From an uncultured Gammaproteobacteria bacterium (GTDB lineage: Bacteria; Patescibacteriota; Microgenomatia; UBA12405): a stretch of 64,000 bases of DNA. Each line of letters begins with the position of its first letter. The stretch's first letter is position 1. The DNA is taken from assembly GCA_964463925.1 (NCBI GenBank), contig CAYXDV010000003.1, forward strand, positions 19,455-83,454. The letters run 5' to 3'. The position numbers and the translations under genes are program-made. A model generated the notes under the pieces. That model searched no databases. It was given only the letters and a program-made list of their open reading frames with translations, and was not told the origin of the DNA. Shown here piece after piece: positions 5,101-39,645 of this stretch.

Positions 5101-5909
5101 CCCATGTCTGCCTTGAAAAAAATGTCGGCTTTGAAGGATTCAAGATAGGACATTTCTTCATCAGTTAGAATGCTTAATACATCCAAACTGGTTACAGTAT
5201 CTTCTAAGAATTGGATTAGGCTTTGGATTTTGTTTTTCTCGGCAATGGCTTTGTTTTCCATTTTCTGGATGTCTTGTTTTAGTTTTACATCCATTTCCTT
5301 CTGGGCTAAAGCTAACTGTTCAGAATTTTTGATCTTTTTACCAAGACCGATTCTTTCTTCTTCTGCTTGAGATTGGCGTTTGGCAATGGCTTGTTGGGTA
5401 AAGGTATCAATCTCCTGTTGATGAAGTTTGGAATTTGAATGGAGGTTGGCTACGGCTTCTTTACGAAGAGAAGCATCAACTTCAATTACTAAGTACTTAG
5501 TAAAATAGACTACAGCTTCTAACTCTTTTTGAGGTATATCTAAAATAACACCCATTGGCGATGGACTATTTTTTAGATACCACAAATGAGCAACCGGAGC
5601 GGCCAGATTGATATGGCCCATACGCTCACGACGAATTTTACTTGTAGTAACTTCCACACCACACTTATCACAGATAATACCTTTGTAACGCATCTTTTTA
5701 TATTTGCCGCAAAAACATTCATAGTCTTTGGTTGGACCAAAGATTTTTTCACAAAACAAGCCATCTTTCTCAGCACGGAAGGTGCGATAGTTGATGGTTT
5801 CAGGTTTAGTAACTTCGCCGTTTGACCAAGCTAATATGGTATCCGGAGAAGCAAGCTTGATTTGCAATCCGTTAAAATCTGATAAGTTAGTAAGGCTTAG
5901 ACTAAGCAT
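2166..5909 (-). CDS. rpoC: DNA-directed RNA polymerase subunit beta'
   Basis: 1247 aa; NADFDGDQM catalytic motif, N-terminal zinc-binding Cys cluster, and co-linear with rpoB. Confidence 0.97.
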
Positions 5910-8900
5910 TGGATACCTCCTGAGTTAAAGTTTCTTCCGCGGGTGCAGTAGATTCCTCTGTCACTTCGCCTTCGGAAGGATTGGTAACGGGTAGAATTTC
6001 AATACACAAACCAGCAAGTTCTTTTGTTAGAACTTTGAAAGATGCTGGCATTGCAGGTTCTGGAATTTTAAGACCCTTAATAATTGCTTGATAAGCTCCT
6101 GAACGACCTTCTAAATCATCTGATTTAAGGGTCAAGCTCTCTTGAAGAATATGGGCTGCTCGGTGAGCTTCTAGGGCCCAAACTTCCATTTCTCCCAAAC
6201 GCTGACCTCCCATGCGGGCTTTACCACCCAAAGGCTGCTGGGTAACTAAAGAGTATGGACCAGTAGATCTTGCGTGGAATTTGTCTTCCACCATGTGATG
6301 AAGTTTGAGAATGTAGCTGATACCAACCAAGACATCTTGTTCATACTTTTTACCTGTTCTTCCATCAAATAATTGAGTTTTACCATTTACTGGTAAGCCG
6401 GCAGCGACTAACTCTTTGGCAATTAAATCTTCATCATATTTTTCAAAGGTTGGCACGGCATAGGTTTTGCCTAGGCGGTAACCAGCGTAACCAAGCATTG
6501 TCTCGAGAACCTGTCCAAGATTCATACGAGAAATTACTGAGAGTGGTGACATAACCATGTCAACTGGAGTACCATCGGCTAAACGTGGCATGTCGTGACT
6601 GGGCATAATTTTGGCAATTACACCTTTGTTTCCGTGTCGTCCAGCAATCTTGTCACCTTCTTGGATACGTCGCATTTGAGCAACATATACCTTAACTACT
6701 TTGTTTACGCCTGGGTCCAACTCATCGTGAGCATCGCGATCAAGAACGTCGACTTTAATCACTACACCACTCTCACCATTGGGTACGCGCAAGCTGGTGT
6801 CTTTGACTTCACGAGCCTTCTCTCCAAAGATTGCTCGTAGCAAGCGTTCTTCTGCTGAAAGTTCTTTTTCCCCTCTGGGTTCAACTTTGCCAACCAAGAT
6901 GTCGTTTGGACCAACATTGGCTCCGATCATCACAATTCCATCTTCTGTTAGCTTTGCTAGTTGCTCTTCAGCTACCCCTGGAATATCGCGGGTTAACTCT
7001 TCTGGACCCAACTTGGTGTCAACTACCTGAGCTTCATATTCGTAGATATGGATGCTAGTAAAAATATCTTCTTTTATCAAACGATCAGAGACTAAAAAGG
7101 CATCCTCAAAGCCGTAACCATCAACTGAAGCATAGGCAACTAGCAAGTTGCGACCTATTGCCAGTTCGCCACCAGCTGCAGCCGGACCGTCAATGATCAA
7201 ATCCCCTTTCTTAACTTTTTGACCAGGAGTTACTACAACCTTTTGGTTATAACAAGTACCGTTTGGACTTGTTCTGATGAATTTTTCGACAGGATAGGTT
7301 ATTTTTCCTATAATCACTTTATCAGCATCAACATAACTAACTACTCCGTCTTCTTTGGCAAGAACATTGCGATTCATAGCGTTGGCAATATCGTCTTCCA
7401 TACCAGTGCCAACTACCGGCTTTTCTGTGGAAATTAGCGGAACTGCTTGACATTGCATGTGCGAGCCCATTAGAGCACGAGTAGCATCATCATGGTCAAC
7501 AAATGGAATAAGAGAAGCTGAAGTTCCTAAAATTTGTCTAGGAACCATATCAATGTAAGCAACTTGTTCTAGAGGTGCACTTCCGAAGTCACCTTCAAAC
7601 TTTACTGGGACTATTTCATCAGTGATCTTTCCGTCTTTATCTACATTAACCCCAAGATGAGTAGTCTTGACATTGTATTCATCATCAGGACTTAGATAAA
7701 CAATCTCGTCAGTAATTTTTTTGTTCTCAATTTTTCGGTATGGGGCCTCAATAAATCCGTATTTATTGACTCGTGAATATAGTGCAAGGTAGGTAACCAA
7801 GCCAATATTTGGTCCTTCTGGAGAACGGACTGCACAGATCTTTCCATATTGAGAGCTGTGTACGTCACGAATGCTGAAAGAAGCGCGTTCACGAGTAAGC
7901 CCTCCGGTTCCAGTAACTGTTACGCGTCGTAATAATTCTAGCTCAGATAAAGGATTGGTTTGATCCAAAATGGCTGACAACTGGTTTTGTTTGAAAAAGG
8001 TATTTAGAGCTGAAATTAGCGGTTGTGGGTTGATTAATTGGCTTGGTAAAACTCGATCTTTGGTGGAAATTAAGCTCATTCTTTCTTTAATCATGCGCTC
8101 AAATTTAGAAAGGGCTGGACGCAGAGCTACCTGAGCAACAATCTCGCCAACTGAACGAAGACGACGATTAGCTAAGCTATCGATATCATCTATTTTTTTG
8201 ACTTTTCCAAGTTGGAGGTCAATCAAATATTTAATTGTTGCAATTAAATCTTCCTTTTTAAGAACCCAATTTGCTTTGTCAGTGTCAGAAAGGTCTAGTC
8301 CGAATTTGTGATTGATCTTGTGTCGACCAACCATACCAAGTTCATAGGTTCGCAAATCGAAAAAGCGATCGTTGAAAAATTTCTCGATAGTTTCGGGAAC
8401 TATTGGCTCACCGGGGCGCATTTTTTTGTAGAATTCGACCAAAGCTTCTTGCTCGGTTTTGCTAGGATCAGCAGCAATCGTATGGTTGATAAATTCTCCA
8501 AATTCATGAACTAGAGTTTTGTCGTTTAGACCACAAGCGGCCCGTAATAAAACGGTAGCCGGTAACTTCTTTTTTCGGTCAATACGGGCAAAAATTACAC
8601 CTTTTTTACCAATTATAAATTCAAGCCAAGAACCTTTTTGTGGACGAACTTCAGCATTGTAGAGTAACTTTCCAGTGGCAGGATCGGCAGTACCGGTAAA
8701 ATAAATCCCTGGAGATCTTACTAATTGGTTAACGACTCCCCTTTCAATACCATTGATGATAAAAGTACCTTCGGAGGTCATGTTTGGTAAATTGAGGAAA
8801 TAAACATTTTCCTCAGTAACCTGACCTGATCTCTTGTTAGTTAGAGCTACCTTAACTTTAACCGGAATAGTGTAATTAAGAGCTTTTTTCTTAGCTAATG

Positions 8901-20177: not shown

Positions 20178-22301
20178 TTACTGGTTATCAGAAGTTGTAT
20201 TATGTTGGATTAGGATTTCTCTTGGTTTGGCTCCATTGTTTGGACCAATAATTCCTGCCTGTTCTAATTCATCCAAGACACGAGCTGCTCTGGCATAGCC
20301 AAACTTCAAACGTCGTTGCAACAGAGAGGCGCTGGCTTTACCAGTTTCCTGGATAACTTTTATGGCAGCATCAAACATTGGATCTCGATCTTCCCCTTCG
20401 ACTGGTTCACCCAGTTGCACACGCTTGCCATTGTTCATTACAGATACTGATTGGTTGAGAATAGAAGTGTCGTAGTCTGGAGTCCGCTGAGATTTGATCT
20501 GATCGACTAGTCGAGTAATTTCCTTATCTGACAAAAAGCATCCTTGCATACGAACAGGTTTGGCCAGCTCTGGTGGAGTGTAGAGCATATCACCTTTGCC
20601 TAACAGTTTCTCAGCACCAGGTGAGTCAAGAATGACCCGAGAATCGGTCATACTGGAAACGGCAAAGGCCACACGAGTAGGAATATTTGCTTTGATTAGA
20701 CCAGTTAGAACATCTACAGAAGGCCGCTGAGTAGCCAAGACTAAATGGATACCGACTGCCCGGGCCATTTGAGCAATACGGACGATACTGTCTTCTACTT
20801 CGGAGGGAGCAAAAAGCATAATGTCAGCCAACTCATCAATTACAATTATGATATAAGGCATATTTTGAAATCCGGATATCTCGTGGAAAGATTCAATATT
20901 TTTTGCACCAACCTGAGCAAAATGCTTATAACGTCGATCCATTTCCTGAGTAGCCCATTTGAGGGCCGAGATAACCTTTTCAGGTTCAACAATTACTGGG
21001 GCGAGCAAATGAGGAATATCGTTGTAGGGTGTCAATTCCACACGCTTTGGATCGACCATAATAAAACGGACTTCGTCGGGGCTGGCACGGAAAAGAATGG
21101 TGGCAATCCAGGAATTAACACAGACTGATTTTCCGGAACCAGTTTGACCGGCAATTAAAACATGGGGCATTTTGGCAATATTAGCAATTCTTGGTTTTCC
21201 AGAAACATCGAGTCCAAGTGGAACGGCGATTTTGGATTTAACATCAACAAAGGCTTCTGATTCCAGAATTTTACGAATTGGTACAGTTTCCAGGCTACGA
21301 TTTGGAACTTCAATACCCACAAGCGATCGGCCTGGAATTGGGGCTTCAACCCGGATTTGGCCACCTGGAGCGGCCAGGGCCATGGCCAAATCATTACCCA
21401 AACTAACAATTTTTGCAAGCTTAGTACCCAGTGCAACTTCCAAAGCATACTGCGTAACCGAAGGACCATTGTTTACTTCTTTAACCCTGGCAGTAATACC
21501 AAAAGATTCCAAAGTTTGCTCAATAGTTTGGGCATTTTTCTTTACATCACCTCTATCGGCTTTGGTGCCTGGACTATTGTCAAACAAATCTAGACTTGGA
21601 TACTCCCAAGCCTGATTGTTCGAAGAAGATTTAGGTTTCAAATCTATTTCAGTCTGCAAGGGGACTGGTGGTTTTATTGGAGAGTTTAAAATTGGTTTTG
21701 TGCCAGTAATATAGTCATCCTTTTCATCTTTGACAAATTGAATTTCTTTTTTCTCAATTTTTGTTTTAGCCTTTAGGCTTTCTTTGGCAACTTTACTTAC
21801 ACGACCAAAAGTATATTTGTAGCAGGCTTGCAAAAAAGCCGAAACAATCTTGAAAACTTGGACTATATTTGTATCAAACAAAATTACAAAACCAATTAAG
21901 GCGAAGGACAAATAAACTAGAAATGCCGGAAAAGCAGACAATAAGTCGCTCAGATTTTGCCAAAAAAATAGACCAATTTGCCCTTGTCGAAGTAGGCCAA
22001 GCAAGGCAGAAAATAGAATGTGAAAACCAAAGAAAATATTTGCTTGTTTGAATGGTGAGTTAACTTTGGCAAAAATAAAACCAATTAAAATCAGCCAAAA
22101 GGGCACTAAAACAGACATTAAGCCAAATTTTGAAATCAAAAAGCCGTTAAAAGCTACGGGTATGTTTCCTGTACCTAAAAATGAATATACCGCAAAGATA
22201 GCCAAAAAAATGAACAAGAAAAAGAAAACAGTGTAAACTGTTTCATCTTTCACCTCTAGTTTTGGCAAACCAGGTGAAGCTTTTTTGGATTTTCTTGCCA
22301 T
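20178..22301 (-). CDS. ftsK: DNA translocase FtsK/SpoIIIE
   Basis: N-terminal polytopic TM region, then Walker A GQTGSGKS, Walker B VIDELAD, and a C-terminal gamma-domain winged helix. Confidence 0.92.
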   Translation of the reverse strand: MARKSKKASPGLPKLEVKDETVYTVFFFLFIFLAIFAVYSFLGTGNIPVAFNGFLISKFGLMSVLVPFWLILIGFIFAKVNSPFKQANIFFGFHILFSALLGLLRQGQIGLFFWQNLSDLLSAFPAFLVYLSFALIGFVILFDTNIVQVFKIVSAFLQACYKYTFGRVSKVAKESLKAKTKIEKKEIQFVKDEKDDYITGTKPILNSPIKPPVPLQTEIDLKPKSSSNNQAWEYPSLDLFDNSPGTKADRGDVKKNAQTIEQTLESFGITARVKEVNNGPSVTQYALEVALGTKLAKIVSLGNDLAMALAAPGGQIRVEAPIPGRSLVGIEVPNRSLETVPIRKILESEAFVDVKSKIAVPLGLDVSGKPRIANIAKMPHVLIAGQTGSGKSVCVNSWIATILFRASPDEVRFIMVDPKRVELTPYNDIPHLLAPVIVEPEKVISALKWATQEMDRRYKHFAQVGAKNIESFHEISGFQNMPYIIIVIDELADIMLFAPSEVEDSIVRIAQMARAVGIHLVLATQRPSVDVLTGLIKANIPTRVAFAVSSMTDSRVILDSPGAEKLLGKGDMLYTPPELAKPVRMQGCFLSDKEITRLVDQIKSQRTPDYDTSILNQSVSVMNNGKRVQLGEPVEGEDRDPMFDAAIKVIQETGKASASLLQRRLKFGYARAARVLDELEQAGIIGPNNGAKPREILIQHNTTSDNQ

Positions 22302-22414
22302 GTAATCAGTATAAACAGACTACCGAGTCAGTTCAACTGGATATGAAACTAAGCACATTGTTTTAAAAAGATTGATTGAAATACGGTAGATTTTCTTAGA
22401 ACTTAACAAGATAT

Positions 22415-22846
22415 TCATTTTTCTCTGGCAGATTTTATACGAGGACTGATTTTACAAAATTTCACACCACACATTTTGCACCCCAATTCCCCGTCTGGTT
22501 GGTTTATTAACAAAAAGTTTAGAGAACTATGTGAAGGTGGTACGTCTAATACAGCATTTACCAGTCTTCCTCCTAGATCAGATCCGGCTTCTAGCGGTCC
22601 TTTTCGAATTAATTGGTCACTTCCACCCCAGGCAGTACAAGTGCCTCCAATGGCAATTTGTCCCCCTTTGTTACCACCTTGTCTGGCATGAGGACATTTC
22701 TCTGGATGATCAGGGTTTTTACATTTACCTGAGAATAATATTTCTACACTCACTCTCCACAAACGATTACCTTCTTTGTAACCAAAACTAGCATTGGTTT
22801 TGTTTAGTCCAGATGGCCATTTAACACGATCAAATCCTTTTGGCAT
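22415..22846 (-). CDS. Hypothetical small Gly/Cys-rich protein with a weak NucB-like GFDRxxWP motif; locally elevated GC
   Basis: 143 aa; native-looking AT-rich codon usage. MPKGFDRVKWP resembles the GYDRDEWP block of secreted NucA/NucB DNases, but the N-terminal half of that fold is not present in frame. Gly-rich centre (GGNKGGQIAIGGTCTAWGG) and CxxC near the C-terminus (GCKMCGVKFC). Confidence 0.45.
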   Translation of the reverse strand: MPKGFDRVKWPSGLNKTNASFGYKEGNRLWRVSVEILFSGKCKNPDHPEKCPHARQGGNKGGQIAIGGTCTAWGGSDQLIRKGPLEAGSDLGGRLVNAVLDVPPSHSSLNFLLINQPDGELGCKMCGVKFCKISPRIKSAREK

Positions 22847-22859
22847 TTTTTATTTTAAC

Positions 22860-23040
22860 ATAACCTATAATTTATTTACTTAGTAGCTTTGGACGAAGAA
22901 GTAATTTCTACTGAGATAACCGACAGTTTCCTGCGACATTGGGTACAATGTGGCAGCTCGTAGCAATACCTCATGTCGGCGCCATCTCCTCGCGACTTAA
23001 TCGTTATGTGATGATCTAGCAAATAAAACACTACAAATAT
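22860..23040 (-). other. GC-rich intergenic region with nested inverted repeats; candidate structured 5' leader or small RNA upstream of ORF 22415..22846
   Basis: Longest non-coding stretch in the window (about 200 nt). Minus-strand reading ...GGCGCCGACAUGAGGUAUUGCUACGAGCUGCCACAUUGUACCCAAUGUCGCAGGAAACUGUCGGUUAUC... has CCGACA/UGUCGG long-range pairing enclosing a CACAUUG-UACC-CAAUGU hairpin. No tRNA T-loop motif is present. Confidence 0.25.
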
Positions 23041-23048
23041 GGTATGGG

Positions 23049-24473
23049 TTAGTAGCTTTGGGCAAAAAGCCAGGTGGTAGAACAGGGCTCTCCGGTTAGA
23101 AAATCTTTGCCTTTGATGGATTCTTGGTCAAGTGGCTGGCAGCGGCTAGTAGCTTTGGTTTCTTCTTTGATTTTGGCTTCTGACTCGGCAGTTTGGTTCC
23201 AAAAAACTTTAATAAAACCTCGGTGCTTTTGCATTATCTCTTTAAACTCATCATAGTTAGTTGCAAACCTAGTATTGTCATCTTGATATTTTTTAGCTTT
23301 GGCATACATCTCCTCATGTATTTGATCTAATAATAGTGGTAATTTGGTTTGTAAATCGGTAGCAGAAATCGATATTTTTTCTCCTGTATTGCGCTTAACT
23401 AGGGTAAATACATTTGCTTCGGCTTCTTTTTGGCCGATTTCTAATCGTAGCGGATAGCCCTCCAACTCAATTTGGTGAAGACGATAACCCAATGACTTAG
23501 TGAAATCAGAATCTATTTTTACTCTAAAATTGGATGATAATTTATTTTTTAATTCTTCTGACTTGGTAAGTAATTGAGGATCGTTTTTGATAGGGACAAT
23601 AACTATTTGGATGGGCGCTACACGAGGTGGTAAAACTAGACCTTTATCATCACCATGCATGAGTATAAGTGCTCCGATAGAGCGAGTAGAATAACCCCAG
23701 GAATTTTGCCAAACATATTTTTTCTGACCATCCTGGTCTTGAAAACCAACATTAAAAGTTTTGCTAAAATTTTGACCAAGGTCGTGGCTGGTACAGCTTT
23801 GAAGTGACTTGCCAGAAGGCATTAAAGATTCAAAAGTTAAGGTGGCATCAGCCCCAGCAAATTTTTCTGATTCTGATTTTTTGCCAACTATTCCCGGAAT
23901 TGCCAAAAGCTCGTTGTAGGTTTTTTCGTAAAGTCGAATAGCCCACAAAACCATTTCCCAGTTTTCTTCGGAGGTAGCATGGGCACAATGACCTTCCTGC
24001 CACAAAAATTCACTAGTACGCAAAAAAGGGATTGTTCTTTTTTCCCAACGAAGGACATTGTTCCACTGATTAATCAACATCGGCAAATCGCGATGAGACT
24101 GGATCCATTTGGAGTAGGATTCATACATTATTGTTTCTGAAGTTGGACGAATAACTAGTCGTTCAGTTAGCTCTTCACCACCACCGACCGTAACGTAGGC
24201 ACATTCAGGGGCAAAACCAGCCACATGTTGCTTTTCACGATGTAAAAAAGTTTCTGGGATTAATAGTGGAAAATAACCATTTTGGACACCTTTATCTTTT
24301 ATAAAACGATCCATAAACGACATAATATTTTCCCAAAGAGCATAGCCCCTTGGCATAATTATCATAGTTCCTTTGACTGGACCGTAATCGGCTAGTTTGG
24401 CTTGTTCAATTACAGAAACATACCAATCGGACAAATCTTGGGTTCTTTTTGGTAATTGATTTGCAAAAGCCAT
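23049..24473 (-). CDS. proS: Prolyl-tRNA synthetase (archaeal/eukaryote-like type without insertion editing domain)
   Basis: 474 aa; class II motifs; C-terminal Zn-binding-type tail ending ...TWLFAQSY. Confidence 0.92.
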   Translation of the reverse strand: MAFANQLPKRTQDLSDWYVSVIEQAKLADYGPVKGTMIIMPRGYALWENIMSFMDRFIKDKGVQNGYFPLLIPETFLHREKQHVAGFAPECAYVTVGGGEELTERLVIRPTSETIMYESYSKWIQSHRDLPMLINQWNNVLRWEKRTIPFLRTSEFLWQEGHCAHATSEENWEMVLWAIRLYEKTYNELLAIPGIVGKKSESEKFAGADATLTFESLMPSGKSLQSCTSHDLGQNFSKTFNVGFQDQDGQKKYVWQNSWGYSTRSIGALILMHGDDKGLVLPPRVAPIQIVIVPIKNDPQLLTKSEELKNKLSSNFRVKIDSDFTKSLGYRLHQIELEGYPLRLEIGQKEAEANVFTLVKRNTGEKISISATDLQTKLPLLLDQIHEEMYAKAKKYQDDNTRFATNYDEFKEIMQKHRGFIKVFWNQTAESEAKIKEETKATSRCQPLDQESIKGKDFLTGEPCSTTWLFAQSY

Positions 24474-24496
24474 GGGTTATTGTAGCAAAACAAGAA

Positions 24497-26245
24497 TTAT
24501 TCTACCTCAATAATCAGCGGCAGAACCATTGGTTGACGGCCAGTTTTTTCGTAGATCACGGTTTCGACATGAGATTGGATTTGATCTTTTATGTATTCAA
24601 AATTGCTAGGTGTACCGGAATTTTCTTTGAATTTTAATTTGGCCTCATCCTTTAGATAGTTAATTAGATCAGTGTTTTCTTTAACAAAAACAAAACCGCG
24701 GGAAAGAACAATTGGCTCTTTGACCATGGCTCCGGTTTCAGCATTAACCAGCATAATAATGGTAAACATGCCTTCTTCAGCCAGGGCTTTTCGGTCGCGT
24801 AAAACTGTAGCTCCTACATCACCTACACCAAAACCATCAATTAGAACTTTTCTAAAAGGTATGATGGCACTTAAATCCACATTCTTTTCAGAATTAAAGG
24901 TGACAGTCTGATTTATATCCGGGCTAATAAGACGCGAGCTATCATAGCCCATGGTTTTGGCCATATCATGATAGGCACGGATATGTCTGTAATTTCCGCC
25001 AATTGGTAGTAAATATTGGGGACGGAGCATATTGATTAAAAGAGCATGTTCAGCTTGATAGCCATGGCCAGATACATGGACTTCCTTTTCACCGTAGACA
25101 ACTTCTACACCCATTTTAGAAAGAGTGTCGATCATAGTATGAATGGCAGAAACTGTTCCAGGAATGTAATCTGGGGAACTAAAAATTACTTTGTCTCCTG
25201 ATTTTATTTTTACCTGATGCTTACCCATAATCATTTTAGACAGAGCAGATTCAGGCTGACCGGCAAAACCAGCAACTAAAAACATCAACTTGTCATCGCC
25301 AAAATTTTTAACTTTGGAAACATCTACTAAATCTTGGTCTTTTATGTCCAAATATCCAAGTTCTTTAGCCAATTTAATAGCTTTATCGACACTAAATCCA
25401 ACAGTTACTATTTTTCTACCAGTACGCTTACCGTAAGTAATGGCCTGGCCCCAGCGGACAATGTTGCTACTAATTGTGGTCACAAAAACCCGTCCTTTGG
25501 CAGTTTTGATCTCGTGTTCGAAATTCTCGGCAATTGAGCGCTCGCTTGGGGAAAAACCTTCATGTTCGGCACCCAGAGAATCTGAGAGTAAACACAGAAC
25601 TCCATTGCTACCTACTCGACAAATATGCTGCAGATCAGCAAATTTTCCGTCCATTGGCAGGGTATCAAATTTAAAGTCAGAACCATGATATACAGTACCA
25701 ACTGGAGTAGTAATAGCAAAATGATGAGTGTCTGGAATACTGTGATTTACTAAAATTGGGTCGATTTTGAAAGGACCCTTTTCCATAATCTGACTGTGTT
25801 TGTATTCAATTAAATTGACCCTAATCTGAGCCTCGGCTAGCCGAGAGCTGATAAAAGCAACGGCTAATTTGGGGGCAAAAATTGGAATATTGGTTCCTAA
25901 AATAGGCATCATAAAGCGGACTGCCCCAATATGATCTTCGTGTCCGTGTGTTATGAAAATACCTAAGATGCGGTCTTTTTTGTCTTTTAAATATTCTGGA
26001 TCTGGGATAATTAAATCCACGCCGAAAATGTCAGTTTCCGGAAACCCGACTCCACAGTCGACAATAATAATTTGAGATTTATTGAAATCTCCGTTTGGGG
26101 CGTATTCATAGGCAAACATATTTTGAGTTACGTTGCCAAAACCACCCAGGGCTATAATGCGCAGAGCATCGCTTCCCTTGTTAAATGTTTTGATAAATTG
26201 TTTTGGTGCAGGTTGATACCTGTCGTTTTTCTTAGCTTGAAGCAT
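24497..26245 (-). CDS. rnj: Ribonuclease J (metallo-beta-lactamase/beta-CASP)
   Basis: HGHEDHIG motif, beta-CASP region and C-terminal domain; 582 aa. Confidence 0.92.
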   Translation of the reverse strand: MLQAKKNDRYQPAPKQFIKTFNKGSDALRIIALGGFGNVTQNMFAYEYAPNGDFNKSQIIIVDCGVGFPETDIFGVDLIIPDPEYLKDKKDRILGIFITHGHEDHIGAVRFMMPILGTNIPIFAPKLAVAFISSRLAEAQIRVNLIEYKHSQIMEKGPFKIDPILVNHSIPDTHHFAITTPVGTVYHGSDFKFDTLPMDGKFADLQHICRVGSNGVLCLLSDSLGAEHEGFSPSERSIAENFEHEIKTAKGRVFVTTISSNIVRWGQAITYGKRTGRKIVTVGFSVDKAIKLAKELGYLDIKDQDLVDVSKVKNFGDDKLMFLVAGFAGQPESALSKMIMGKHQVKIKSGDKVIFSSPDYIPGTVSAIHTMIDTLSKMGVEVVYGEKEVHVSGHGYQAEHALLINMLRPQYLLPIGGNYRHIRAYHDMAKTMGYDSSRLISPDINQTVTFNSEKNVDLSAIIPFRKVLIDGFGVGDVGATVLRDRKALAEEGMFTIIMLVNAETGAMVKEPIVLSRGFVFVKENTDLINYLKDEAKLKFKENSGTPSNFEYIKDQIQSHVETVIYEKTGRQPMVLPLIIEVE

Positions 26246-34252: not shown

Positions 34253-34630
34253 CTATATTTTTGGATCGATTATTTGGTGTTTTTTTCTGAATTTTACAAA
34301 CAGAAGACCAAGTAAGTAGCCAAGTAAACCAAAATGGACAGAAAAATATTGGATTTTGTCGTCATTAAATTGTTGGTTTACTGAATCTAAATTCTTGCCA
34401 TTTATAGATAATTTTGGCTGGTTAAAACTGGTTGAAATGTCTAGGATTTTTCCATCAGGAAGCTGAACTTGGGTGTGAGGGGCAAAAAAACCTTTTTGGA
34501 CAGAGGGCTGCTTTTTCTCATTGATAAATACTTCGTAATATTTGCCTTTGAAAAAATGATAGGACTGATATAGATCTATTTTAGTACCGTCTGGAAGAGT
34601 AAGTTGTTGGGGAGTTTTGGAGGGAAACAT
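34253..34630 (-). CDS. Hypothetical protein with a C-terminal TM anchor (125 aa)
   Basis: Soluble N-part then LLGYLLGLLFV hydrophobic tail; occupies the position where rimP usually precedes nusA but has no RimP similarity. Confidence 0.45.
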   Translation of the reverse strand: MFPSKTPQQLTLPDGTKIDLYQSYHFFKGKYYEVFINEKKQPSVQKGFFAPHTQVQLPDGKILDISTSFNQPKLSINGKNLDSVNQQFNDDKIQYFSVHFGLLGYLLGLLFVKFRKKHQIIDPKI

Positions 34631-37428: not shown

Positions 37429-37707
37429 TTAAAGTTGTTTTTCTAGTTTTTTAATTTTTCTGAGACGAAAGAAATTGCCAACCCAACAGTACAAAGTATA
37501 AGCAGTGGCCATGATGGTTATCACCATATTTATATCGAAACTTGGAATATGTGTCTGCGGATTTCTAATTAACCAAATGCTACTAAAGTATCCCCAAATA
37601 GTTAATAGACCTATCGCGAAAGGAAATACGGCTATAGAATTTAGAAAATGAATAATTACATCTAGCCTGAGCTGTTGGATTTGAAATTCAAGATTTTTGT
37701 TTTTCAT
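37429..37707 (-). CDS. Small two-TM membrane protein, hypothetical
   Basis: 92 aa with two hydrophobic segments; lies between dnaK and dnaJ. Confidence 0.4.
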   Translation of the reverse strand: MKNKNLEFQIQQLRLDVIIHFLNSIAVFPFAIGLLTIWGYFSSIWLIRNPQTHIPSFDINMVITIMATAYTLYCWVGNFFRLRKIKKLEKQL

Positions 37708-37718
37708 AATTTATTTTA

Positions 37719-37742
37719 AGAGACGCGCGGGTGCGCGTCTCT
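37719..37742. terminator. Perfect GC-rich hairpin AGAGACGCGC-GGGT-GCGCGTCTCT between dnaK and the downstream small ORF; candidate partial terminator or mRNA-stability stem-loop
   Basis: 10-bp perfect stem with a 4-nt loop seen directly. There is no strong U-tract on the minus-strand side, so termination efficiency is uncertain. Confidence 0.4.
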
Positions 37743-37749
37743 GGATTTG

Positions 37750-39645
37750 TTAGTTAACAACCTCCCCTTCCTGAACGTCATTTTTGTCGGATTTGTTTTC
37801 TTCGGACCTCGGAGTTTCGCCTTCTGGCTTTTTACCTGCTTCAGACTGTTGGTACATAGCTGAACCAATAGTTTGCAAGATCTGGCTTAGATCATTAGAA
37901 GCCTTGTCATAGTCCTCTTTTTTCAAATCAGTTTTGGCGTGTACTTCTTTGGCTTTTTTAATTTCCTCTTCTAGCTTAGCCTTGTCCTCGGCTTTAGCCT
38001 TGTCGCCATAATCTTTGAGGGTCTTTTCGCCACTAAAGATGGTTGCGTCAAGCTGATTTCTGGACTCAACTATTAGCCTTTTGGCTTCATCTTCTTTGGC
38101 ATGCAAGTCGGCTTCAGCTTTCATTTTTTCTACCTCCTCTTTACTTAGGTTAGTGGCGTTTTGGATAGTAATTTTTTGCTCTTTGTTGGTAGCTTTGTCT
38201 TTGGCTGAGACTGAAAGTATGCCGTTGCTATCGATATCAAAAGTAACTTCAATTTGGGGCATACCACGAGGTGCTGGAGGTATACCATCAAGAACAAAAC
38301 GACCAAGTGATTTGTTGTCTGCAGCCATTGGCCGCTCACCCTGAAGTACATTGATTTCTACCTGGGTTTGGTTGTCACTATAAGTGGAAAATACTTGTGA
38401 CTTTTTGGTTGGCACAGTGGTGTTTTTTTCAATCAGAGGGGTCCTGACTCCACCTGCTGTTTCAATGCCTAATGTTAGCGGAGTTACATCCAGAAGGACA
38501 ACATCCTTAACATCACCAGCCAAGACACCACCTTGAACAGCAGCACCAATAGCTACTACTTCGTCGGGGTTAACGGTGCTATTTAGATCTTTGCCAAAAA
38601 AGTTCTTAACAGTTTGCTGAACTAAAGGCATACGTGTCATGCCCCCGACCATAACAATATCGGTAATCTCTGATTTACTGACTTTGGCATCTTTTAAACA
38701 CTGTTCGACTGGTTTTAACGATTTTTGAACCAGGTCGTCAACTAGCTTCTCGAGTTGAGTTCTGGTAAATTTGACGGTTAAGTGTAGGGCTTGTCCGTCT
38801 TTTTGAGTAATAAATGGTAGATTGATTTCGGTTTCTACTGAATTACTGAGTTCAATTTTGGCTTTTTCTGCAGCCTCGCGAACGCGCTGTAGAGCTTGTG
38901 GATCTTTGGACAAATCAACTCCATTCTGTTTTTCGAAATCGGTTAACAACCATTCAGCAATACGGTGATCAAAATCATCCCCTCCCAAAAAGGTATCTCC
39001 GTTTGTGGCTTTGACTTCAAAAACTCCGTCGCCAATTTCTAGAATAGAAATATCAAAAGTGCCACCTCCCAAGTCGTAAACAGCAATGGTTCCTTTTTTC
39101 TTTTTATCCAAACCATAGGCTAGGGCAGCAGCGGTTGGCTCATTAACAATTCTTAATACATTCAGGCCAGAAATTTCTCCTGCCTGTTTGGTAGCCTGAC
39201 GTTGACTATCGTCAAAATAAGCAGGTACAGTAATTACGGCATCAGTAATTTTGTCACCGATAAATTTTTCAGCGTCAGTTTTACATTTTTGTAAAATCTT
39301 AGCCGAAATTTCTTGGGGAGTATAAACTTTACCATCGATTTCTACACAAGCCATGTTGTCTTTGCCAGCAACTATTTTATAGGGGGCAATTTTTTTGGTT
39401 TTTTCAACTTCTGGATCATCGTAGCGTCGACCCATGAGTCGTTTGATGCTAAAAATAGTGCTTTTGGGGTCTAAAACCATTTGGCGTTTGGCCAAATCTC
39501 CGACCAATTTTTTTAGTGGGTTAACAATAGATGGAATAGTGTTGCGGCCTTCGGAAGTTACTACTACCTTAGCCTGTCCACCCTCCATAAAAGCAACACA
39601 AGAGTTGGTGGTACCTAAATCGATACCGATGATTTTGTTTGGCAT
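37750..39645 (-). CDS. dnaK: Chaperone DnaK (Hsp70)
   Basis: [21 protein letters not shown] and [14 protein letters not shown] motifs; 631 aa. Confidence 0.97.

Follow-up and report, generated by a model that had tools for sequence, protein, structure and literature searches.

The DNA between proS and ftsK in the stretch analysed here raises the question of whether it encodes an unusual nuclease under the control of a regulatory RNA. The whole stretch, 64,000 nucleotides (nt) long and referred to below as the window, comes from an AT-rich lineage similar to the Patescibacteria, or candidate phyla radiation (CPR). In the direction of transcription, and all on the minus strand, the locus reads RNase J, proS, a gap of 202 nt, a 143-amino-acid (aa) open reading frame (ORF) that we call ORF143, a gap of 113 nt, and ftsK. 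The initial annotation, made from the letters alone, likened ORF143 to the NucA/NucB DNases and proposed that the 202-nt spacer upstream of it is a riboswitch, an attenuator or a small non-coding RNA (ncRNA). We find an ordinary accessory insert at the locus, rather than a nuclease of the NucB type or a cis-regulatory RNA. We consider it probable that this insert consists of a dead 3′ gene fragment together with an orphan gene, ORF143, in a strain-variable accessory locus.

A truncated gene in a strain-variable gap

The core of the spacer is a truncated 3′ pseudogene belonging to a small family of Cys-motif genes, represented by the 151-aa ORF of the sister strain L087 (L087_151, protein P0123). 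The initial annotation had noticed a short ORF in the spacer containing MRYCYELPHCTQCRRKL, and considered that it might be the upstream remnant of a once longer gene. This ORF exists (22876..23031, minus strand) and is indeed a remnant, but of a separate gene of 151 codons rather than of ORF143. Its frame, ending ...HHITIKSRGDGADMRYCYELPHCTQCRRKLSVISVEITSSSKATK and a stop codon, aligns with residues 107–149 of the L087 protein, HYKLRSNGELGEDTRYARGAPRCVACDAKFRLCQVEITRVSK. The Smith–Waterman score of the alignment is 77 (z = 14.4), which none of 1000 shuffles equalled. When the window, translated into its complete set of 3551 stop-to-stop peptides, was searched with a hidden Markov model (HMM) of the L087/L095 gene, the fragment was the sole match (E = 1.9e-5) and covered positions 104–151 of the 151 in the model. 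It was also the only match in the window to the 151-aa protein in tblastn (E = 1e-4), and in tblastx it was matched in one frame only. The conserved blocks of the family are GTNGAAATTAC and CGTTAT, and AlphaFold2 predicts its structure with a predicted local distance difference test (pLDDT) score of about 35.

The relatives that made this comparison possible came from a protein search with the prolyl-tRNA synthetase (ProRS) encoded by proS, which found proteins of 95%, 80% and 65–69% identity, and then from their contigs. Scans of GTDB genomes and JGI metagenomes with ProRS gave only relatives of at most 67% identity, without synteny, and the short JGI contigs of the proS cluster (L096 and L097) end before the spacer. 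In the closest relative, L086 (RNase J 99%, ProRS 95% and FtsK 97% identical), the proS–ftsK gap is 105 nt long and has no ORF. In L087, L088 and L095 (RNase J and FtsK about 95%, ProRS 80%) it holds a cassette of about 1.14 kb with a promoter (TTGACA-18 nt-TAATAT) and a pair of orphan ORFs, one of 144/161 aa and the other of 151 aa. In more distant relatives (ProRS 65–69%) the gap measures 288 to 2460 nt and has unrelated content. The gap, ranging overall from 105 to 2460 nt, is a strain-variable hotspot, and ORF143 and the proposed leader are therefore both accessory.

The breakpoints of the insert are equally clear (Table 1). The blastn alignment of the window with L086 continues at 94% identity through the 31 nt that follow the proS stop codon (23049–23051) and diverges beyond them; a flank resembling these 31 nt is also found in L087 and L095. 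Collinearity with the relatives restarts at about 22345, at the ftsK promoter, the end of which is 6 nt from the ftsK ATG. The 672 nt in between, which occur as a single copy within the window, stand in place of about 31 nt in L086, so that both ORF143 and the insert are absent from the closest relative. The DNA alignment of the gene fragment begins exactly at the L086 breakpoint, and the fragment and the intact 151-aa gene both sit between proS and ftsK. The simplest reading is that a deletion of about 0.9 kb would have removed the promoter of the cassette, its first small gene and about 105 codons from the 5′ end of the 151-codon gene, and would have fused the remaining ~45 codons 31 nt behind the proS stop codon.

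Table 1. Positions in the window of the features of the proS–ftsK locus
Feature	Position	Strand	Basis or remark
RNase J	24497..26245	minus	gene upstream of proS
proS (prolyl-tRNA synthetase)	23049..24473	minus	Pfam tRNA-synt_2b, HGTP_anticodon, ProRS-C_1; conserved upstream flank
proS 3′ flank, 31 nt	23018..23048	minus	last part collinear with L086 before the insert
Strain-specific insert, 672 nt	22346..23017	minus	breakpoints from blastn and inspection against L086 and L087
Pseudogene fragment	22876..23017	minus	last ~45 codons and stop of the 151-aa Cys-motif gene
Hairpin, 11-bp stem with one mismatch, 4-nt loop	22931..22956	minus	overlaps the P-x-C-x-x-C codons of the fragment
TAAAAT −10-like box	22852..22857	minus	5 nt upstream of ORF143 ATG; putative leaderless promoter, consensus match
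ORF143, orphan 143-aa ORF	22415..22846	minus	starts MPKGFDRVKWP
ftsK promoter TTGAAC-17 nt-TATACT	22308..22336	minus	promoter scan; conserved in L086, L087 and L095
ftsK	20178..22301	minus	Pfam FtsK_alpha, FtsK_SpoIIIE, FtsK_gamma; conserved downstream flank

We note two further features of the gap in the relatives. The first ~200 nt of the cassette (6426–6625 in L087, 2123–2322 in L095), which take in its promoter and the beginning of the first ORF, are 92–96% identical between these two strains, compared with 82–84% for the flanking essential genes; in the 3′ third of the first ORF the identity is down to 53–66%. In L094, the gap of 654 nt (5429–6082) has no called gene, and contains a fragment of a PEP-utilizers mobile domain (PF00391, E = 1.2e-14) and a 72-codon frame ending ...NHPTCKICRKKIGVRMLTD and a stop, with a CxxC block weakly similar to the fragment in the window (z = 3.4).

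The status of ORF143

The 143-aa ORF is present on the minus strand and opens as annotated. Its core is rich in Gly, which accounts for 20 of the 143 residues and for 12 of the 41 residues at positions 55–95. Cys residues are found at positions 42, 51, 70, 123, 126 and 131, and include the CxxC reported near the C terminus; they form the pairs C42-x8-C51 and C123-x2-C126-x4-C131. The GC content was described as raised, but at 0.407 it falls on the 71st percentile of 200-nt windows and is unremarkable. There is an in-frame stop two codons 5′ of the ATG, and ORF143 therefore cannot extend further in that direction.

In simulations, the chance of finding an ORF of at least 143 aa in 747 nt of like composition was p ≈ 0.003. 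The codon log-likelihood ratio of ORF143 is +0.145 per codon, compared with 0.193 ± 0.081 for real genes and 0.002 ± 0.107 for other open frames; the remaining five frames of the same stretch all have negative values, so that codon usage is gene-like in the ORF143 frame only. A −10-like box, TAAAAT, lies 5 nt before the ATG. Such boxes occur 3–9 nt upstream of 13 of the 42 gene starts in the window, compared with 5.9% of all ATGs on that strand, and the gene at 34253..34630 has the same TAAAAT-5 nt-ATG arrangement. Because of its length, its one-frame codon usage and the −10 box at a typical spacing, ORF143 is a probable gene, and we judge it fairly likely to be a real, strain-specific and leaderless gene for a small protein. 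It would probably be transcribed as a leaderless mRNA from the TAAAAT box. The product would be a small cytoplasmic protein, whose Cys pairs hint at metal binding; it would not be a NucB nuclease. Across the window, the rarity of Shine–Dalgarno motifs and the −10-like boxes close to starts suggest that leaderless mRNAs may be widespread in this genome. Further boxes of this kind lie upstream of the starts of ftsK (22308–22313) and proS (24479–24484).

ORF143 matched 0 families in Pfam-A (hmmscan, E ≤ 10) and 0 in NCBIfam. Against PDB sequences, phmmer at E ≤ 10 gave five chance matches, none of them a nuclease, and nothing matched in PHROGs or PADLOC. Two whole-database protein searches, of 5.8 billion clusters and 1.84 billion representatives, returned only ORF143 itself, and no relative was found among ~15 billion proteins. 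The single remote match, to P0002, a 4178-aa cadherin-repeat protein (E = 3.6e-5), involves 29 residues summed over many repeats and was judged to be due to chance. The other reading frames of the insert have no match in Pfam. An origin from a phage, a plasmid or a defence system was rejected on the basis of searches of IMG/VR, INPHARED, PLSDB, PHROGs and PADLOC, which gave no matches.

ORF143 was also compared with the 151-aa family that gave rise to the neighbouring fragment. Membership of this family received no support from local alignment (z = 1.1), from the HMM (no match) or from hhalign (probability 1.5%). Only global alignment with soft gap penalties, at z = 2.9–4.0, gave a value that is at most suggestive of kinship, and the two share the collinear short motifs V+W..G, C-xn-C..GGN+G, GELG and CxxC..KF..C.

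Several observations weigh against our reading of the insert. ORF143 has no homologue in either of the two whole-database searches; it is missing from L086; and AlphaFold2, run on the single sequence, gave a mean pLDDT of 34.8, so that a fold search would be meaningless. The −10 box is a consensus match only, of a kind that precedes more than one in twenty of the ATGs on this strand. The reading of the fragment as dead also fails to predict that L087 and L095 have kept the inner hairpin of the spacer, with changes on either side of its stem. Finally, the genes at this locus may be fast-evolving or decaying. In a comparison of L087 with L095, the flanking genes have dN/dS (the ratio of nonsynonymous to synonymous substitution rates) of 0.01–0.04 and differences at the three codon positions of about 0.07/0.02/0.40. 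In the two cassette ORFs dN/dS is about 0.5, and the three codon positions differ almost equally (0.26/0.27/0.30 and 0.16/0.16/0.21). Moreover, the 151-aa gene, intact in L087, is frameshifted in L095 (2733–2900), through either decay or an error in the assembly, and the gene called there (P0124) has only 99 codons. These properties of the sister cassettes (the dN/dS, the flat codon-position differences and the frameshift) temper our confidence in ORF143.

An alternative is that the whole 672-nt insert is non-functional recombination debris and that ORF143 is an unexpressed or decaying ORF. The relaxed constraint and the frameshift in the sister strains, the poor structural prediction, the lack of any homologue in the databases searched and the absence of ORF143 from L086 all fit such an origin, as do its position adjoining a proven gene fragment and the occurrence of fragments at this locus in other relatives. 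Nevertheless we regard debris as unlikely, because a 143-codon open frame is improbable by chance, has gene-like codon usage in that frame with negative values in the other five, and is preceded by a −10 box as far from its ATG as is usual for real genes of the window.

The hairpin, the proposed leader and the NucB motif

The inverted repeats that drew attention to the spacer are real: CCGACA and TGTCGG enclose an 11-bp stem, and GGCGCC is also present. The inner hairpin (Table 1) is not unique in the window, which contains 13 hairpins of this quality, compared with 4.2 ± 2.3 in shuffled sequences. The stem lacks a following U-tract, which rules out an intrinsic terminator. The only other GC-rich 11-bp hairpin of the window, AAGAGACGCGC-GGGT-GCGCGTCTCTG at 37718–37743, may act as a terminator or be an RNA element of another kind; it sits in the gap separating ORF 37429..37707 from ORF 37750..39645.

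The retention of the inner hairpin in the sister strains could mean that genes of the 151-aa family carry at their 3′ ends a functional RNA or DNA element, which the fragment has kept and which would act in RNA stability or processing or as a recombination site that defines the cassette. The columns of the stem pair at 9 of 11 positions in L095 and at 7 of 11 in L087; four pairs have changed on both sides, and one pair shows three different Watson–Crick types. RNAalifold independently predicts the same inner helix, and equal pairing at that geometry is found at only 3 of 1157 positions (0.26%) of the L087/L095 cassette. However, the comparison comprises three sequences and two independent lineages, and the amino-acid sequences largely account for the pairing: alone they give means of 7.9, 5.7 and 7.9 pairs, and the observed pairing is only slightly above that of synonymous alternatives (P = 0.04, 0.15 and 0.22). 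In addition, conservation does not extend to the outer helix, the folding of the spacer as a whole is not significant, there is neither an Rfam match nor a U-tract, and the element is missing from L086. A functional hairpin is therefore, in our view, rather improbable.

A more elaborate version would make the proS–ftsK gap a dedicated site of cassette exchange for fast-diversifying small CxnC...CxxC proteins, which are zinc-ribbon-like and of which ORF143 would be a highly divergent representative. The hairpin conserved over the CxxC codons, possibly together with the repeated word CCAAAGCTACTAA described below, would then be a structure-specific signal for recombination or RNA processing that has survived in the truncated copy. 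This is speculative, and we give it little credence. A multi-copy mobile element, such as a miniature inverted-repeat transposable element (MITE) or an insertion sequence (IS), was considered and rejected: the insert is single-copy in the window and, by eye, has no convincing terminal inverted repeats and no integron-type cores (GTTRRRY/RYYYAAC) at the hairpin.

We return to our preferred reading, of a coding remnant beside an orphan gene, and consider how the properties ascribed to the spacer fit with it. The spacer (22847–23048) was described as GC-rich, but its GC content of 0.381 equals the window mean; only a core of about 100 nt (22900–23000) is richer, at 0.485. It was also described as the longest non-coding stretch of the window. 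On the available gene calls this holds, since the wider gaps between ORFs of at least 90 aa are occupied by shorter ORFs or called genes; most of this stretch, however, is gene fragment. Its proposed structure is no more pronounced than expected from composition. On the transcribed strand the spacer has a minimum free energy of −42.3 kcal/mol; dinucleotide shuffles average −39.1 ± 3.6 (z = −0.88), and 39 of the 200 reach an energy as low or lower. Folding of the opposite strand gives z = −1.59, and that of the whole 672-nt insert z = +1.25. A cmscan of 21800–23600 against Rfam 15 at E ≤ 1 gave 0 matches, as did Rfam over the whole window at the gathering threshold, and the relatives L086, L087, L094 and L095 gave 0 relevant matches. 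A hidden copy of a known ncRNA (RNase P, transfer-messenger RNA (tmRNA), signal recognition particle (SRP) RNA or 6S RNA) was rejected because Rfam and ARAGORN found nothing, including no tmRNA by ARAGORN. The GC content and hairpin of the spacer core are inherited from coding sequence, namely the P-x-C-x-x-C codons of the fragment, and on our reading the core is not a regulatory RNA. The best promoter-like element for ORF143, TAAAAT, lies downstream of the proposed leader, which argues against a location in the 5′ untranslated region of ORF143. ORF143 is absent from all the related genomes recovered; the one remaining support for a structure is the inner hairpin, kept in two sister strains.

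The proposed similarity of ORF143 to NucB fares no better. FDRVKWP does resemble locally the NucB block DRDEWP (GYDRDEWP in the initial annotation), of which the DRDE part is confirmed (PMC5758888). In NucB, Asp93 and Glu94 of the catalytic motif DRDE serve as metal ligand and general base, and Asn117 of the motif DNRG, ~24 residues after Asp93, chelates the metal; mutation of any of the three abolishes activity (PMC5758888). In ORF143, residues 6–9 at the DRDE position are DRVK, with Val-Lys in place of the catalytic Asp-Glu pair. Reading further along the sequence, residues 26–29 are GNRL, giving an N-R dipeptide about 5 residues nearer than the NucB spacing, and there is no DNRG. At E ≤ 10, ORF143 matched neither the Pfam NucA/NucB family nor any NucB chain in the PDB. 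The remark that the N-terminal half of the fold is not encoded in frame was correct, as ORF143 begins at the motif, two codons after a stop; but the suggestion that a frameshift separates the two halves failed, as the short ORF comes from another gene and, joined to ORF143, does not rebuild a NucB domain. A riboswitch, attenuator or small ncRNA controlling a NucB-type DNase fragment is thus hardly credible: it has the inverted repeats and the FDRVKWP block in its favour, and against it the lack of any Rfam or Pfam match, folding at the level of shuffled sequence, a core that is derived from coding sequence and missing from the closest relative, a putative promoter on the wrong side of the leader, and the loss of the catalytic pair.

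There remains the repeated word. The exact 13-nt direct repeat CCAAAGCTACTAA occurs at 23049–23061, the last codons of proS, and at 22880–22892, in the spacer, where a repeat of this kind would arise by chance with a probability of about 0.004; it might reflect microhomology used in recombination. More generally, CCAAAGCTACTA(A/G) occurs three times in 280 nt on the minus strand, at the two positions above and at 23146–23158, and is read as ETKATS within proS, as QSY and the stop at the end of proS, and as SKATK and the stop in the fragment. The repeat, together with NYFFVQSY and a stop in another frame, suggested that the spacer might be a copy of the proS 3′ end, displaced or duplicated; a 22-nt local DNA alignment (z ≈ 4.6) and a match to the L087 proS end at 21 of 24 nt also favour this. 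The idea is scarcely tenable: a profile of 24 ProRS C termini matched no part of the spacer when all peptides of the window were searched at E ≤ 50, the same bases form the end of the 151-aa family gene in another frame (SKATK-stop, compared with SKVK-stop in L087), and a 12-of-13 copy of the word lies inside proS itself in a different reading frame.

The wider locus and comparison with known systems

The genes around the insert show variation of their own. FtsK is 94–97% identical in amino-acid sequence in L086, L087 and L095. The RNase J–proS gap likewise varies between strains and separates conserved genes: it measures 23 nt in the window, compared with an insertion of 505 nt in L086 (1769–2273), which contains an ORF that by eye resembles a GNAT acetyltransferase (motif HRGKGFAKRML). 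proS is a mosaic relative to L087, with nucleotide identity of ~0.80 overall and of 0.59–0.64 in a segment of ~300 nt (approximately 23270–23570, codons ~300–400); because of this segment, ProRS is only 80% identical to its L087 counterpart, compared with ~95% for RNase J and FtsK. In the C-terminal domain of ProRS (23049–23200), the four Cys residues of the zinc motif have been lost in the window and in the relatives of 95% and 80% identity, whereas nearly all other CPR-type ProRS relatives keep the motif (FWCE..CE ... C.YCG). The window protein reads FWNQTAESE ... KDFLTGEPCS, similar to the Thermogemmatispora variant.

The main value of this analysis lies in a correction, in that a candidate nuclease arrangement with a riboswitch becomes a gene remnant and an orphan ORF, to be pursued neither as a nuclease nor as a riboswitch. 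GC-rich, hairpin-bearing stretches that appear to be non-coding in AT-rich, reduced genomes can be coding leftovers, and comparison with one close relative settles such a question faster than structure prediction. A minor positive outcome is the record of a hotspot that varies between strains and is flanked by two essential genes, in a CPR-like lineage of which few genomes have been sampled, and of a small, uncharacterised family of Cys-motif genes known from only three assemblies.

The comparison with known systems can be made for each of the elements discussed. With riboswitches and 5′ leader attenuators, the spacer shares its position as a stretch not coding for protein upstream of an ORF, and its nested inverted repeats. 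It differs from them in having no family match, no excess folding energy and no conservation in the nearest relative, in being derived from coding sequence, and in having the putative promoter of the downstream ORF on its 3′ side. With the NucA/NucB DNases (Pfam DNase_NucA_NucB), ORF143 shares an N-terminal DR..WP block followed ~20 residues later by an N-R dipeptide. It lacks a profile match, both catalytic residues, a correctly spaced DNRG, an equivalent of His53, the N-terminal half of the ~110-aa mature ββα-metal fold and a signal peptide.

ORF143 is closer to lineage-specific ORFan genes for small proteins. Like them it is short and strain-specific, has no detectable homologue, and has gene-like codon usage and start context. 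It differs in its weak, putative collinear motif similarity to the 151-aa family, and in that its expression is presumed. The fragment in the spacer belongs with truncated pseudogenes. It differs from the usual case in that its parent is an uncharacterised orphan family from only two other assemblies, and in its unexpectedly retained internal hairpin. In other respects it resembles them closely: it has frame-specific similarity to the 3′ part only of an intact, syntenic gene of a sister strain, it is without a start or a promoter, and it lies between highly conserved housekeeping genes. As with truncated pseudogenes in variable hotspots, other relatives hold different fragments or genes at the same place.

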